Shown here in pieces: positions 3,657 to 10,310 of a stretch of 64,000 nt of DNA. The stretch is from Dictyostelium discoideum (taxonomy: Eukaryota). The notes below the pieces were generated by a model that was not told the origin of the DNA, did not search any database, and saw only the letters and a list, made by a program, of their open reading frames with translations. The translations under genes and the position numbers were made by a program. Position 1 is the stretch's first letter. Every line of letters begins with the position of its first letter. Location of the stretch: assembly GCA_000004695.1 (NCBI GenBank), contig CM000152.2, positions 3,136,001 to 3,200,000 of the forward strand, in the 5' to 3' direction.

Positions 3657-5535
3657 TTAAGTTGTAATAGTTTTTAATAGTATACAACTTGTTTCTATTG
3701 ATGAATTTAAAATTGATAATTTCATTGATTTCGGCTCAAATAAATTTAAATCTAAAATATCACCAATTTTATTTTCTTCAATATTAATACAAGAATTATT
3801 ATTATTATTATTAATTTGGAATAATTGATCAATTAAATCTAAATTTAAATCACTATTTAAAAGTAATAATTTAATAATATCTTTAATTGATTTTTGTAAT
3901 GATTTTATAATTAAAACCTCTTTAATTAAATTTGTTGATAATGATGATGATGATGATGATGATGAATTTTGTTTATTTTTAATTAATTCATTTAATAAAT
4001 TAATTATTATAAATTCAAAATTTGAAGAAGAACCAACAAATTTAAAATCATCATCAATTATAATTGATCTAAATATTGTTAATAATGATTCTAAACCGAG
4101 TTTAGCCTCTTTTAGGAATTTTTTACTTGAGCCTTTCAATATAATAGTTTGAGTATCACTAAATTGACAACCCTCAAATAATTCATATGATTTTTTACCA
4201 ATTATAATTTGTTTATATTTTTTACAAGTTCCATAAAATGATGAATCTAATGATAGATTTTGTAAACTTGATTGAGTATTACCACCAATTGATTTTTTAA
4301 TAAATTCAAATTCATTTATATTATTAATTGAACCAATACAATTAATTTTATTATTATTATTTTGATTTTGGCTACTTATTTTAACAAATTCTTGAATTGC
4401 TAAATCACCAATTACTTTTTTATTTAATATTAAATTTATATTTAAATTGTAAATATTTTCCAATTGTTTTGAAATTAATGATTTCTCTGCATTTATAAAC
4501 TCTAAATAATCATTAACATTTGAAATTTCAATATTTGCAAACTCTTTTTGATGTTTTAATTCAATTTCATAATCTAATAATAATATTTTAGGATTTTCAA
4601 TTACTTTAATTAATTTATCTCTACCTGCAAATGAAAATTTAGATTTTATTAAAATTCCATTTAATAATTTAATTTCAATTTCATCATTATCATCATCATC
4701 TTCCTCTTCTTTTTTTTCATCTTCATCTTCATTATTATTATTATGATCTTCATTACTTGAAATTATAGTTTTAATTTTAATTTTATTTTTATCTAAATTG
4801 GGTAAAATTTTAATTAACTTTTTAAAAATTTTAGAAATTCTTTTAAAATAAATTGATAATATATTTTTTGATAAATTGGTTTTTATAATTGATTCTAATA
4901 ATTGATCATTTTTACCACCACTACTACTAAATATTTCATCTTTTAAATTTATAATAAATCTTTCATTAAAATTATTTTTAATAAATAATCTGCATTCTTG
5001 AAATATATTTAATATTTGATTTATTGAAAATGTTGATGTTGATGAAGATGATGAACCTTTATTATTAATTAATTTTATTGATCTTTTTAATATATTATTT
5101 GTTAATATTATATATTGTGAAACACCACACCCAAATCTATTTTTTATATAATTTGATTGTTGTAATATAATTTTATAATATGGTGAATCATTATTTAATG
5201 ATTTAAATATCAATAGCCCATCTTTTTTTTTTTTTAAAAAAAAAAAATAAAATTTTAAAATTAATATGTTAATGATTTAAAGATTAAAAATAAAAAAATT
5301 AAATAAAAATAATAAAATATAGTAAAGAAAAAAAAAAAAAAAATCTATATTAAATAAACTTACCATTTGTAAATATAATTTTTTGTGTGGAATTAACAAC
5401 ATTATCATTCTCACCCTCATCATTTTTATGATCAAAAACTTGTGATATTAATTTTAATTTACCATGAATTCCAAAACTTGATTCTATAAGTTTCGCAATA
5501 TTATCAATTATTTTAAATTCTTGATAATTATTCAT
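3657..5535 (-). CDS. Divergent, Asn-rich TCP-1/cpn60 chaperonin-family-like protein. Exons: 5535..5364 and 5221..3657.
   Basis: Exon 1 reads MNNYQEFKIIDNIAKLIESSFGIHGKLKLI...TNG and ends before a GTAAGTTTATTT donor (phase 1). The acceptor aaaaaag|AT completes the codon GAT, and the frame continues DGLLIFKSLNN... in the 518-aa ORF. The motifs AKLIESSFGIHGKLKLI, ILLLDYEIELK...ISNVNDYLEFINAEKSLISKQLENI and ILKGSSKKFLKEAKLGLESLLTIFRSII resemble the CCT equatorial and intermediate domain motifs LGPKGMDKM, LLEGSLEYKKGES and [20 protein letters not shown]. Confidence 0.45.
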
Positions 5536-5581
5536 AATAAAAAAAAAAAAAAAAAAAAAAAAAAATGGAAAATCAAAAGTG

Positions 5582-5625
<44 letters not shown>

Positions 5626-5942
5626 TTGAGTAAAATTAATTAATTGTAAAAAAAAAAAAAATAATAAACAAAGTAAAATAAAAAAATAAGTAAATAAAAT
5701 GAAATGAATTAAAATATAGAAAAAAATAAAAAAAATTTTAAAAACTTAAAGTTATAAACTTGTAAAAAAAAAAAAATTATTGGTTAAAAAAAAAAATTAT
5801 TGTTAAAAAAAAAAAAAAATTGATAACGAAAAATTTTGATTTTTTTTTTTTTGAAAAAAAAAAAATTTCGAAATCAACCGTGCGGGGAAAAAAAAATGAA
5901 AAATTTCAAATTGTTATTTGTTTGTAGCTAACCAATCACACA

Positions 5943-6654
5943 ATGAAGTATGTCACACTCGTGTTATAATATCACATATCACCCTTTAAATTCACTGTCA
6001 TATATTATATAAAAATTATAATGATAATGCAATAATAATATATCATAAAAGATAATCAACACAATTGAATGATAATTATGATAGATTAAAGATTGATGAT
6101 AGTGGATATAAGATTAAAGATTAAAGAGAAAATTTATAAATAAAATTATATAAATATTAATCATAAACTTTTATTATAGGACCTCTCTTTGCAACTACAG
6201 TGAATTCAAAATCTACCCAGCTCGTGGTATGTATAATAATATTTAGGTTTAGGATTATATAGGATATTAGGCAGGATTTAGGGAATTTTTTATATTAATC
6301 AATCAATCAATTCAATATTTAGGTATGAAATTCGTTAGAGGTGACTCTAAAGTTTTCCACTTTATCAACACTAAAGTTGAATCTCTCTTCTTCAGAAAGA
6401 TCAACCCAAGAGATATTAGATGGTCAATGGTTTACCGTAGAATCTACAAAAACACCACCACTGATGTTTCAGCCAAAAAGAAGGCCAGAAAGACCAAGAA
6501 AGTCGAAAGAAACATCGTCGGTGCTTCATTAGAAGTCATCCAACAAAAACGTGCCCAAAAACCAGAAGTCAAACAAGCTGCTGCCGAACAAGCCAAAAGA
6601 GAAATCAAAGAAAAGAAGAAAGCTGCTGCCAAAAAAGCTGCCCCAAAAAAATAA
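5943..6654 (+). CDS. rpl24: 60S ribosomal protein L24e. Exons: 5943..5947, 6180..6226, 6323..6654 (127 aa).
   Basis: The 5-nt first exon is ATGAA followed by GTATGT. The first acceptor is ttattatag|G. Exon 2 encodes (K)TSLCNYSEFKIYPARG followed by GTATGT (phase 1). The second acceptor is tatttag|GT. Exon 3 encodes GMKFVRGDSKVFHFINTKVESLFFRKINPRDIRWSMVYRRIYK...KPEV... This matches the eukaryotic L24e pattern MKxELCSFSGYKIYPGHGRR...DGKVFQF...NPRQINWTVLYRRKHKKG...QKPEV. Confidence 0.85.
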
Positions 6655-7610
6655 ATGATTAAATAAACGTTGGATCATTATTGTTTTAAAAAAAAAAAAT
6701 ATTATATTTAATTAATTTGAGAAAATTGAATAATTGGTGGATAGGATAAAAATAAAAAAAAAAAAAATTTATTTCAGTGTTTATTTTTAAAAGAAATTAT
6801 TTGTTTTAAAGTTTCTATTTTTTTTTTTTTCCTTTGTTTTTAATTTGATGTTTATTTAAATTTATTAAAGTATATTAAATATTTATAGTTTATTTAAGTG
6901 GAATAATATGTTTTTGAATTTATTATTTTTTTTATGTATTTTTATAAAATGGAAATTTTTTGGCTGTAATCGCTATGTCCAAATGGTTTAATTATTAGCT
7001 ATTACAGTGAGATTCTGTAAAATACTTTTTCATGGATGCGGTTATAGTGAGTTGTGTGTGTAATTCTTTTAATCTCTTCAAAGGGATTTGAGATTTGCCA
7101 ATTTCTACACGGATAGATTTAGGCCAAGTTGGAGATAATAAATATAGGTCTTGATTTTAGTTTTAAATGGATAGGTGCAGCTGTGCTGTAGTTGGTAATG
7201 ATGGATTGGTATTGCCCATTCCGTGGGTATTTTCATTTTTCCAGAAGTGTTTTCTTGTGGTTTGTTGAATTTGGTTAGGTTTCAATTGTCCACTTGTTTT
7301 TTAACTAATTTTTGTTTAATTGGATAGCGCAATTCTGGGTAGCTTCTCATTGAGATGCTAGATCTCATTTTATTTGTAATATATTTATAGGGCCTCTGAA
7401 AGAGGGGGTTAGTTTTCTTACCTTATATTATTATTTTTTTTATTTGTTTTTTTTTTTTTTTACAAATGTTCGCAAAAGTTCCCAAATTGGGTGCTTTTTT
7501 TTTCTTTTTTTTTCTTTTTGTTATTATTATGGATGTAGTAATTTTTTTATTACTATTATTTTCAATTTTTAACTAATATTTTTTACTATTATGAAAAAGT
7601 TTTCATCAAA

Positions 7611-7692
7611 GACATCGTAGCAAAGTGGTCTAATGCGTCTGACTAGAAATCAGATCCCTTCGGGGGCGCAGGTTCGAACCCTGCCGATGTCG
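7611..7692 (+). tRNA. tRNA-Ser(AGA), class II with a long variable arm.
   Basis: The sequence folds as a class II cloverleaf. Acceptor stem GACATCG pairs with CGATGTC, plus discriminator G. D-stem is 3 bp (GCA/TGC). Anticodon stem TCTGA/TCAGA carries loop CTAGAAA, giving anticodon AGA. Variable arm TCCCTTCGGGGGCG is 14 nt. T-arm is GCAGG TTCGAAC CCTGC. A box is AGTGGTCTAA. B box is GGTTCGAACCC. Confidence 0.85.
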
Positions 7693-7721
7693 ATACATTT
7701 TTAATTAGAAGCCTATTACCC

Positions 7722-7732
7722 GAAGTTCGCAT
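7722..7732 (+). promoter_or_regulatory. Putative external B box (ex-B) about 30 bp downstream of tRNA-Ser.
   Basis: GAAGTTCGCAT resembles the B-box core GGTTCGAA. Dictyostelium tRNA genes often carry an extra B box 20-40 bp downstream of the tRNA 3' end. Confidence 0.35.
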
Positions 7733-8775
7733 TTCTTATGAGGTTATACTCTGCCCACGAATTATTTTAATCTACCAAAATAATAATTGAATTTTAAGTA
7801 AACCTATCGATTCATGTTTTTTTACTTCAATGGGCAAATATCGATATATTGAAAGAAAAGAAAAAAAAAAATATTTGTTAATAATTTTTGAAATTTCTTT
7901 TTTTTTAAAACTAAAAATCAATTCAATCATTCAATATAGTTATAAAGAAGGTTCTGTTGCTGACGAGTCATAGAAATGTATCAAGTACACATGCTGTTCT
8001 TTCTTGTAATATTGGTGAATTAATATTATCAATTTCTAAATATTACAATATTATGGAAAATTGAAATGTGGAAATCTGTATCTTTGATTTGTAAATCCAT
8101 TTTTAATAAATTAAAATTGCAACATCAACAACAACAACAACTTCATGAAAAAGAGGATCACTTTTTAAAACATCTGCAATATGATGAAAATGTTTTATTT
8201 TCAAAAAATATAGATGCAAAATCATTATCTAAAATGCATTTACAAACTGATAATAAAGAAAATTTTACCACTTCAATTATGAATCCATTATGCAATTTAT
8301 AAATATTAAATAATAGTAATGTAAACAATTCGATAATATTAATTCAGGTATACCAGAGAAATTTTTGATACATTCAAAATCAAAAAAAAAAAATTTTGAT
8401 CAACTAGTTTAATTTTTTTATTTTTTATGTAGCTCCCTTTAATAAAAATACCGAATTTTTTTTTTTTTGTTTTTTTCCCCACCATTCTTGTTTAATTAAA
8501 AAAAATAAAATAAAATAAAATCCACTTATTCTGCCACCAAAATAAATTTTTAATCTGAAATCATTTGTTTCGTTTTTTTTTTTTTTTTTTTTTTTTTAAA
8601 ATTTTGTTAAAGATTTTTAATACCTGATGTCATTTGTTTTATTTTTTTTGCAAAACTTTATTTTTTTTTGGTTTCTAAAAAAAAAAAAAAACGGTTCGAG
8701 TTGTTTTCCACCTCATAACAAAACGTTTTTCCCACCTAGCTGTGGCGTTTAAAAAAAAAAAAATGAAAATAAAAA

Positions 8776-8783
8776 TCCCACAA
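8776..8783 (+). promoter_or_regulatory. DUSE-like motif TCCCACAA, about 106 bp upstream of the ATG at 8889.
   Basis: Matches the Dictyostelium upstream sequence element consensus [AT]CCCA[CT]AA. It lies in an unusually GC-richer stretch (8690-8790) that also holds a B-box-like GGTTCGAGTTG at 8693-8703. Confidence 0.25.
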
Positions 8784-8888
8784 CCCGGGTTACATAACGA
8801 ATTTGATCAATTTTTTCCACTATAAATTGTTTTTTTTTTTATATATTTTTTTTTTATTATTTTTTACATTATAAACAAAGAATAAAAA

Positions 8889-10310
<1,422 letters not shown>

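Follow-up and report, generated by a model that had tools for sequence, protein, structure and literature searches.

What is the GC-rich island just upstream of the tRNA-Ser(AGA) gene of Dictyostelium discoideum: transposon debris, an RNA gene or part of a host gene? Within the window (the whole 64-kb stretch of DNA that was analysed), GC content is 0.331 across 6961-7440, compared with 0.125 in the left flank (6656-6960), 0.176 in the right flank (7441-7610) and a mean of 0.138 in the window outside stop-free stretches of 60 codons or more. Outside such stretches, just three 200-bp patches reach a GC of 0.30: the island, the tRNA and a short first exon at 62981-63180. The island is the sole non-coding patch of such GC in the 64 kb apart from the tRNA. 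Its plus strand consists of 42% T, 24% A, 22% G and 12% C, and the minus strand is therefore A/C-rich. No ORF longer than 43 aa (ATG/GTG/TTG starts) occurs within it, and its longest stop-free run, 58 codons, is ordinary when compared with shuffles. The lower AT content and the lack of an ORF had both been pointed out in the preliminary description and both hold, and every string quoted there is found in the sequence. That description left a choice between a retroelement remnant and an unannotated structured RNA.

The island very likely represents a nested pair of truncated, decayed TRE5-family non-LTR retrotransposon copies, not an RNA gene. There are two elements rather than one, an older piece (e1) and a younger piece (e2). 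Both are 5'-truncated, with the minus strand as sense strand and their 5' ends toward tRNA-Ser(AGA). In biological terms the relevant unit extends beyond the GC island: it is an inserted block at about 6931-7565 (Table 1). An interval of about 170 bp had been described between island and tRNA, and the drawn edge does lie 171 bp upstream, but this gap is misleading: the AT-rich stretch belongs to the insertion block too, which continues to -46. The sense strands of TRE elements are rich in A and C, at about 30-35% GC. Because native Dictyostelium intergenic DNA has about 14%, the island looks GC-rich. The GC-rich part is mostly decayed ORF2 coding sequence, rather than a UTR module or an LTR.

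Table 1. Features of the inserted block and of the adjoining tRNA gene (window positions; e1, older piece; e2, younger piece; TSD, target-site duplication; L007 to L010, compared D. discoideum loci)
Feature	Position	Strand	Basis or remark
Deletion junction, distal end of e1	6931..6943	.	about 415 bp of L010 missing
e1, older 5'-truncated TRE5 remnant, probable decayed ORF2 C-terminal coding region	6944..7297	-	orthology and blastx
Internal deletion junction in e1	7059..7061	.	128 bp of L010 and L009 missing
Internal deletion junction in e1	7252..7258	.	about 135 bp of L010 and L009 missing
e2 TSD, distal copy TTTTTAACTAAT	7298..7309	.	exact 12-mer, repeated at 7566-7577
e2 A-rich tail AAACAAAA (minus strand)	7310..7317	-	where the L007 and L008 copies have A7-A30
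e2 3'-terminal C-module-type module, TRE5 family	7318..7452	-	blastn and five-way alignment
e2 proximal (5') part	7453..7565	-	within TSD-bounded insertion; missing from L010 empty site
e2 TSD, proximal copy TTTTTAACTAAT	7566..7577	.	-45 to -34 from tRNA
tRNA-Ser(AGA) gene	7611..7692	+	ARAGORN; Rfam tRNA, 61.5 bits
ex-B-box-like motif GAAGTTCGCAT	7723..7733	+	+31 to +41, 31 nt past tRNA

The younger piece is delimited by an empty site. In the divergent D. discoideum assembly GCA_054859355.1 (locus L010), e1 is joined straight to one copy of the TSD, followed by the tRNA, and e2 is missing. In this allele e1 ends about 47 bp from the tRNA; in the window, the 5' end of e2 at 7565 lies 46 bp from tRNA position 1. 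TRE5 elements occupy a position 47+/-3 bp upstream of tRNA genes, with reference copies 37-211 bp upstream (PMC5391098), and TRE5-A generates TSDs of 10-16 bp (PMC9012585). When compared with the fixed position and orientation of TRE5 (PMC5391098, PMC3159450), e2 combines the -46 position with a 12-bp TSD, an A-rich tail and homology to the 3' module. The orientation agrees as well: the tRNA is on the plus strand, and the C-module and ORF2 homologies are on the minus strand with their 3' ends distal. A retroelement remnant, and TRE5 among the families named for it, had been put forward from the sequence, and this part of the preliminary description is borne out by homology, TSD, empty-site allele, position and orientation.

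Homology of e2 to known element ends is direct. By blastn, 7309-7452 matches a solo copy at L008 9503-9357 (81.8%, 148 nt, E 2e-33) and 7294-7461 matches L007 6962-6802 (72%, 172 nt, E 1e-17). The latter segment (L007 6802-6962) is the 3' UTR of a full-length element, directly after the stop (6781) of an RVT_1-containing ORF2. A shared core of the 3' module is visible in a five-way alignment, and the tail of e2 comes after the conserved element end ...GCGCTATCCAATT. The strings GGATAGCGCAATTCTGGGTAGC and GGGCCTCTGAAAGAGGGGG (the latter including CTGA), to which attention had been drawn earlier, are the reverse complement of this C-module. The proximal part is A-rich on the minus strand and contains an internal A-run, a CCCAAATTGGG palindrome (7481-7491) and GTTCGCA (7469-7475); the A-run corresponds in the alignment to the internal poly(A) that follows ORF2 in L007 and L008, and for the rest of these 113 bp no element part was matched by homology. 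The module is repeated in the genome: sampling of copies covered two other loci, unlinked in D. discoideum, and yielded at least three more C-module-type copies, in addition to a micro-copy in L009. The TRE5-A.1 C-module is marked by T15, C26, A35 and C38 counted from the 3' end (PMC3159450). Read by eye, all four bases fit in e2 and in the L008 solo copy, and three of the four in the L007 copy; as evidence for TRE5-A the pattern is weak on its own, recurring by chance at 6961.

The older piece makes up the bulk of the GC-rich island and carries three lineage-specific deletions. Orthologous blocks at 86-91% identity are present in L010 and L009, both divergent D. discoideum assemblies; the window blocks 6944-7059, 7061-7252 and 7258-7313 correspond to L010 4908-5021, 5150-5346 and 5482-5539. 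The L010 copy runs from 5522 to 4535 on the minus strand (about 990 bp) and has a C-module-like end. It matches residues 726-908 of the TRE5-type ORF2 protein P0061 (RVT_1) by blastx with stops present (E 4.9e-6). A direct blastx of the window copy against P0062 gives colinear weak matches at residues 751-812 (E 0.054) and 884-892 (NHLDIAITA vs NRLDIPLTA). e1 thus probably derives from ORF2, an assignment that rests mainly on the better-preserved L010 orthologue, direct protein similarity being weak (E 0.054). No convincing TSD was found for e1, and a local alignment of e1 to the element of D. cf. discoideum was no better than chance.

The deletions account for what the window copy lacks. At the distal end, homology to L010 stops at window 6930 (L010 4492) and restarts at 6944 (L010 4908); by MAFFT, the extra bases at this junction number 307+95 in L010 and 409 in L009. 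In L010 the missing segment holds the remaining ORF2 C-terminus, the 3' UTR and the C-module-like end. The 128-bp segment includes a decayed CCHC zinc-knuckle part of ORF2; since the ORF2 alignment of L010 is colinear across it, the segment is ancestral and the window allele is the deletion. Window and L010 are 89.6-89.7% identical in e1, 93.9% in the introns of rpl24 and 99.7% in its exons. The divergence of e1 is neutral, at least as fast as that of introns.

Can the remnants be placed within the TRE5 family? Such a placement is tentative, also as regards TRE5-A rather than TRE5-C. Like TRE5-A (formerly DRE), they point their 5' end at a tRNA gene from about 47 bp upstream, and they share with it frequent 5' truncation, TSDs of 10-16 bp, a C-module of about 135 bp at the 3' end, all four diagnostic C-module bases in e2, and the arrival of new copies at the same site, displacing older ones from the tRNA. 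In TRE5-A the 3' UTR has a B-module of 290 bp and, after it, a C-module of 134-137 bp. In contrast, no B-module is recognised between the A-rich stretch of e2 and its C-module, as judged without a B-module reference sequence, and e1 and e2 are dead fragments without promoter or ORF. The published primers for endogenous TRE5-A (Rep-190, Rep-109Q; PMC5391098) have no match in the block, L007 or L008; two of the TRE5-A primers of that paper may target a codon-adapted ORF1. The full-length elements, putatively of TRE5-B/TRE5-C type, at L007 and L008, also loci of GCA_054859355.1, carry ORF1 and ORF2, are about 76% identical to each other, and have their 5' ends facing tRNA-Ser and tRNA-Lys genes. 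The C-terminus of their ORF2 is the protein homologue of e1, by way of its L010 orthologue, and their layout after ORF2 is that of e2: an internal poly(A), a module of about 110 nt ending in ...AATTGCG.TA..C.ATTC, and a tail. They differ in sequence, with 72% nucleotide identity to e2 (L007) and about 27% amino-acid identity to the decayed e1 orthologue.

Several earlier readings of single stretches were dropped. The 43-aa ORF (7236->7105), considered as the N-terminus of TRE5-A ORF1 in the B-module, is without homologue and is not a called gene. The interval 6961-7009 was considered as a non-LTR 3' end on account of a three-stem hairpin, an A6 and matches at C-module bases 15, 26, 35 and 38; these are coincidence, the interval being decayed ORF2 codons (LNHLDIAITAKKFPF vs LNRLDIPLTANAIAI) and the true C-module lying in e2. 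A reading of the block as an A-B-C recombinant TRE5-A was dropped despite fitting the block length.

Could the island instead be an RNA gene? A lineage-specific ncRNA gene on the minus strand, transcribed by Pol III or Pol II from a DUSE-like upstream element, might be a long ncRNA, a cluster of snoRNAs or an RNA of the telomerase type templated by CCCCCUCU. In favor of such a gene are the near-DUSE ACCCAATT about 63 nt upstream of the right edge of the island, the scarcity of T-runs on the minus strand and the position of CUAACCCCCUCU close to the putative 5' end; Dictyostelium rDNA telomeres are reported to consist of AG(1-8) repeats. Folding of the minus strand gives a z-score of -2.3 (-0.87 on the plus strand), which is not informative. 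However, the DUSE-like word, CCCCCUCU and the hairpins all fall inside the homology to the TRE5 3' module, and ACTAACCCCTCTTTTAGAG is present in the L008 copy too; the telomerase template was dropped, as its string is a conserved part of the C-module. The DUSE itself reads [AT]CCCA[AT]AA and lies about 60 nt upstream of transcription starts (PMC3188802): no exact copy occurs near the island, near-matches inside e2 reach 6/8 and 7/8 only, and the window as a whole holds 15 copies against 23 expected, with no enrichment. The gene would also straddle two independent insertions with a TSD between them. It is missing from five related species, none of which has an island homologue at the syntenic site. 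Between strains it outpaces introns in divergence and tolerates deletions of 128-415 bp. A scan of 5500-9000 with Infernal/Rfam at E <= 1, the check proposed earlier, returned the tRNA only, as did Rfam on the five related loci. The structured RNA suggested in the preliminary description thus finds neither a family match nor conservation, and an ncRNA gene here is extremely improbable. Its box C-like and box D-like strings fare no better. A box C/D snoRNA has box C (RUGAUGA) near its 5' end and box D (CUGA) near its 3' end, with the boxes 70-120 nt apart and a terminal stem. Here AATGATGG is without the final A of box C, and the CTGA lies about 200 nt away in the other insertion (e2); no snoRNA match was returned at their coordinates (Rfam, E <= 1). 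Both are chance words within decayed transposon sequence, and GGATAGGTGCAGCTG..., CCATTCCGTGGG and AATGATGG all lie in the decayed ORF2 fragment.

Two further readings keep a transposon of another kind or a host gene. DGLT-A, Skipper-2 and TRE3 likewise target tRNA genes in D. discoideum, and a length of about 465 bp would suit an LTR. But a solo LTR or LTR-retrotransposon fragment (DGLT-A/H3R or Skipper-2), or a TRE3 element, is hardly credible when the pieces lie at -46 and beyond: DGLT-A inserts 13-33 bp upstream, Skipper-2 8-23 bp downstream and TRE3 about 100 bp downstream of the tRNA (PMC5006619). Terminal TG...CA repeats with a TSD were not found around the island, and its sequence matches a non-LTR ORF2 and C-module rather than an LTR. 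As to host genes, a PF02458 transferase gene occupies the corresponding place in D. purpureum, on the minus strand between rpl24 and the tRNA, and the strand bias of the island resembles that of the sense strand of expressed genes. A decayed protein-coding gene of this kind has next to no likelihood, nor does a GC-rich UTR of rpl24 or a neighbour. In tblastx, the D. purpureum transferase gene gives low-complexity matches only; exhaustive HMMER of the best frame (105 codons) against 1.84 billion proteins returned one spurious repeat-protein match, and word-based searches found no host protein. Conservation of the rpl24 3' flank stops by about 6845-6930, short of the island, and the D. discoideum assembly annotation has no gene there. 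A literature search with island twelve-mers found no Dictyostelium paper.

Two nested TRE5 insertions suggest the following history, whose mechanism is borrowed from published TRE5-A work. The elements would recognise the Pol III transcription complex on the tRNA gene and integrate through target-primed reverse transcription at a point about 47 bp upstream, the 5' end always facing the tRNA and copies often being 5'-truncated. An old truncated copy, e1, would have inserted first, at about -47 of tRNA-Ser(AGA), with the last 280 or so ORF2 codons, the 3' UTR and the C-module. It would then have decayed neutrally, the window lineage losing three pieces including its own 3' end to leave the present remnant. 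Later, in the window lineage only, the severely truncated e2 may have inserted at the same spot, bringing 256 bp (A-rich stretch, C-module and short A-rich tail), duplicating 12 bp of target and shifting e1 away from the tRNA.

Other strains and species have used the same site. In L009 it holds a separate insertion, a C-module reduced to its last 30 or so nt and followed by A11. At the syntenic site D. cf. discoideum carries a TRE5 fragment of its own, whose ORF2 C-terminus shares 77% identity with P0061 across 57 aa (E 2.5e-26), and interspecies homology breaks off at about -46. One tRNA gene has thus served as a repeated landing pad, with three independent insertions among close strains and one more in a sister species. 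This recalls the pile-ups of Ty1/Ty3 solo LTRs at yeast tRNA genes, where one Pol III gene is likewise reused as a safe landing site and layered dead fragments differ between strains; the yeast elements, however, are LTR elements that use integrase, whereas e1 and e2 are non-LTR and would have inserted by target-primed reverse transcription. That TRE5 fragments lie upstream of tRNA genes in Dictyostelium has been known since 1989. The feature is of an ordinary, already understood kind that adds no new principle and has little weight for genome biology. [quoted passage not shown]

The C-module of TRE5-A has weak antisense promoter activity and is bound by CbfA. By analogy, the dead e2 might retain a working C-module pointing along the plus strand to the tRNA gene 290 bp away, although this is very unlikely. 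If true, the module could give rise to a strain-specific Pol II transcript that crosses the promoter region of tRNA-Ser, or could attract CbfA to it, and strains with and without e2 would differ in expression of tRNA-Ser or neighbouring genes.

As a Pol III target, the tRNA gene draws the insertions to this place. Its assignment as tRNA-Ser(AGA), made in the preliminary description, is confirmed by both tRNA predictions, and the gene is kept downstream of rpl24 in six dictyostelids. Judged only by its chromosome and approximate position, the gene is probably AX4 SerAGA-7 on chromosome 3; SerAGA-7 (chr3 3143611-3143692) took tagged TRE5-A integrations in experiments (PMC5391098 Table S2). An ex-B box is an external B box downstream of a Dictyostelium tRNA gene, with a B-box-like GTTCG core a few tens of bp away and under constraint. 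The ex-B-like string reported downstream gains support from cross-species comparison: the motif is kept as GAAGTTCG(C/T)A or GAACTTCGTA in D. discoideum, D. cf. discoideum, D. citrinum and D. dimigraforme, and D. firmibasis shows GAGTTCGAACCCC about as far from the tRNA. The flanks do not align between species, whereas the core is kept in 4-5 species, a pattern that fits a candidate ex-B box.

The GC-richer island upstream of tRNA-Ser(AGA) is very probably a pair of nested, dead TRE5 retrotransposon fragments at a repeatedly used tRNA landing site: an older insertion (e1), which forms the bulk of the island, and a younger one (e2). The feature is real but ordinary, being of a kind already known. 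Its preliminary description as GC-richer and ORF-less holds: 6961-7440 has 33.1% GC, compared with 12.5% in the left flank (6656-6960), 17.6% in the right flank (7441-7610) and a mean of 13.8% for the 64-kb window outside long stop-free stretches. No ORF inside the island exceeds 43 aa, and its longest stop-free run matches shuffled-sequence expectation. The plus strand is enriched in T and G, and the minus strand is therefore A- and C-rich. Only three 200-bp patches in the window reach at least 30% GC outside long stop-free stretches (the island, the tRNA gene and one short first exon); the last of these (62981-63180) is coding rather than a non-coding island. Chromosome CM142509.1 of GCA_054883475.1 is 99.65% identical to the window over 22 kb, with 5900-9000 identical.

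The family is indicated by two minus-strand ORFs of the D. cf. discoideum block, which match the C-terminal ends of P0061 (77% identity, 57 aa, E 2.5e-26) and P0062 (71% identity, 48 aa), both reverse-transcriptase-domain proteins of D. discoideum. The loci of these proteins, L007 and L008, are non-LTR elements with ORF1 and ORF2; the 5′ end of L007 points at a tRNA-Ser(AGA) gene and that of L008 at a tRNA-Lys(UUU) gene, and a 5′ end toward the tRNA gene is the published TRE5 arrangement (PMC3159450; PMC5391098). BLASTN of the window against both loci gives two strong matches, both in minus orientation, which bear out the retroelement remnant that had been proposed as one alternative. In L007 the matched segment comes straight after an internal poly(A) and the stop codon of ORF2, and the L008 segment is a ~140-bp solo 3′ end flanked by its own repeats. 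A five-way alignment yields a 3′-terminal core that precedes an A tail: ...CCTGTA...AATAAAATGAGAT...CATCTCAAG.AGAAGCAACTA..AATTGCG.TA..C.ATTC. The bases named in the TRE5-A.1 C-module (T15, C26, A35 and C38 from the 3′ end, PMC3159450), read by eye, are present 4/4 in the window copy and the L008 solo copy.

Positions of the principal features in the window
Feature	Position	Strand	Detail
rpl24	5943-6655		three exons; upstream of island
e1	6944-7297	minus	older TRE5-family remnant
Match to L007 6962-6802	7294-7461	minus	72% over 172 nt, E 1e-17 (BLASTN)
Target-site duplication (TSD), 12-mer TTTTTAACTAAT	7298-7309, again at 7566-7577		complement follows tail on minus strand
Match to L008 9503-9357	7309-7452	minus	81.8% over 148 nt, E 2e-33 (BLASTN)
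e2	7310-7565	minus	younger TRE5-family remnant
e2 tail	7317-7310	minus	AAACAAAA, directly after module end
e2 module end	7318	minus	...GCGCTATCCAATT
tRNA-Ser(AGA)	7611-7692	plus
Short first exon	63017-63128		ATG at 63017, ~37 codons, GTGAGT splice donor ~63129

The 5′ end of e2 lies 46 bp from the first tRNA base; published TRE5 values are 47+/-3 bp, with TSDs of 10-16 bp and common 5′ truncation (PMC5391098; PMC9012585). The four assemblies labelled D. discoideum that carry this RPL24 differ at the e2 site. L010 (GCA_054859355.1), ~9% divergent from the window in non-coding sequence, is an empty site: e2 is absent and a single copy of the 12-mer region abuts the tRNA upstream sequence. L009 (GCA_054859385.1) carries a different insertion of ~55 bp (5540-5595) at the same -46 site, comprising only the last ~30 nt of a C-module (AAGCAACTGATAATTGCTTTATCCAATTC) and A11, and this is a third, independent TRE5 micro-insertion.

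The older e1 is 86-91% identical in L010 and L009, where three extra segments (~415, 128 and 135 bp) interrupt it. On the minus strand of L010 it starts ~47 bp upstream of the tRNA and runs for ~990 bp to a C-module-like end; its translation, with stops, is colinear with P0061 ORF2 residues 726-908 (E 4.9e-6). Because this alignment includes a decayed CCHC knuckle within the 128-bp segment absent from the window, the extra segments are ancestral and the window allele reflects three deletions. Window e1 itself aligns weakly but colinearly with P0062, at residues 751-812 (E 0.054) and at 884-892. Window-L010 identity is 99.7% in rpl24 exons, 93.9% in introns, 92.9% in the 3′ flank and 89.6-89.7% in e1; as e1 falls below introns and flank, its rate of change equals or exceeds that of unconstrained sequence. 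The left edge (6961-7009), a hairpin followed by A6, was considered as a retrotransposon 3′ end and rejected, since it encodes a decayed ORF2 peptide, LNHLDIAITAKKFPF (intact counterpart LNRLDIPLTANAIAI). The window's lineage has lost the true 3′ end of e1 by deletion.

The other alternative proposed was an RNA gene. DUSE-like CCCAAATTGGG, B-box-like GTTCGCA (7469-7475) and CUAACCCCCUCU all fall within e2, CUAACCCCCUCU being a conserved portion of the C-module, and the DUSE pattern is no more frequent in the window than chance. Fold z-scores of the island are unremarkable and an Rfam scan at E <= 1 matches the tRNA only; the island is very probably not an RNA gene. Syntenic rpl24-tRNA intervals were retrieved with RPL24 as anchor from five species (D. 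firmibasis, L001; D. purpureum, L002; D. citrinum, L004; D. cf. discoideum, L005; D. dimigraforme, L006). In every one, tRNA-Ser(AGA) follows rpl24, no sequence aligns to the island, and the stretch ahead of the tRNA holds GC-richer, ORF-poor material that differs from species to species. Homology with D. cf. discoideum (~86% identity across genes, introns and spacers) ends ~190 bp past the rpl24 stop and restarts at about -46 from the tRNA. So sharp a break on either side of a conserved tRNA favours insertions over base substitution.

Downstream of the tRNA, four species share the motif GAAGTTCGCAT (7723-7733) in the form GAAGTTCG(C/T)A or GAACTTCGTA, and the corresponding region of D. firmibasis reads GAGTTCGAACCCC. 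This conservation, within a flank otherwise unalignable between species, supports reading the ex-B-box-like motif noted initially as an ex-B box, a conserved element beside the two TRE5 fragments at this tRNA. Judged only by its chromosome and rough coordinate, this gene is probably SerAGA-7 on chromosome 3 of AX4, at which tagged TRE5-A integrations have been obtained experimentally (PMC5391098).

Beyond the tRNA, the next 1 kb (7735-8755) is also lineage-specific, with no D. cf. discoideum alignment, and contains a plus-strand 78-aa ORF (8066-8302). TRE5-A is known to target isolated B boxes, and one B-box-like GGTTCGAGTT stands alone at 8692-8701, ~1 kb past the tRNA, where the next gene has its promoter region.

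L009, L010 and L012 (GCA_054859205.1) differ by 6-9% from window 5900-6930 in introns and spacers, with identical RPL24 protein, and on these comparisons resemble divergent lineages more than variants of a laboratory strain. L012 has e1-like sequence after rpl24 (4638-5011, 69% identity), yet its 7.7-kb locus lacks tRNA-Ser and the genes further downstream (Pirin, ependymin-like) are not the same, which suggests that the transposon/tRNA site was rearranged.

In D. firmibasis, a ~200-bp unit with B-box-like GTTCGAATC and the tRNA-like T-arm word GTTCAAGTC occurs twice upstream of tRNA-Ser (L001 7457-7600, 7641-7790) and once more, inverted, downstream (9110-9320); the 9000-9400 patch (43-53% GC) has no Rfam match. 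The D. citrinum annotation places a 132-aa "gene" in the rpl24-tRNA interval (L004 6223-6621); it is an (AAT)n microsatellite read as poly-Asn, almost certainly an annotation artefact. In L008, a ~2-kb, very AT-rich insertion (7020-9087), bounded by inverted repeats and containing tandem repeats (TAATTAATTAATAATTACATT...), splits the C-terminus of the full-length TRE5-type ORF2 and may be another mobile element.
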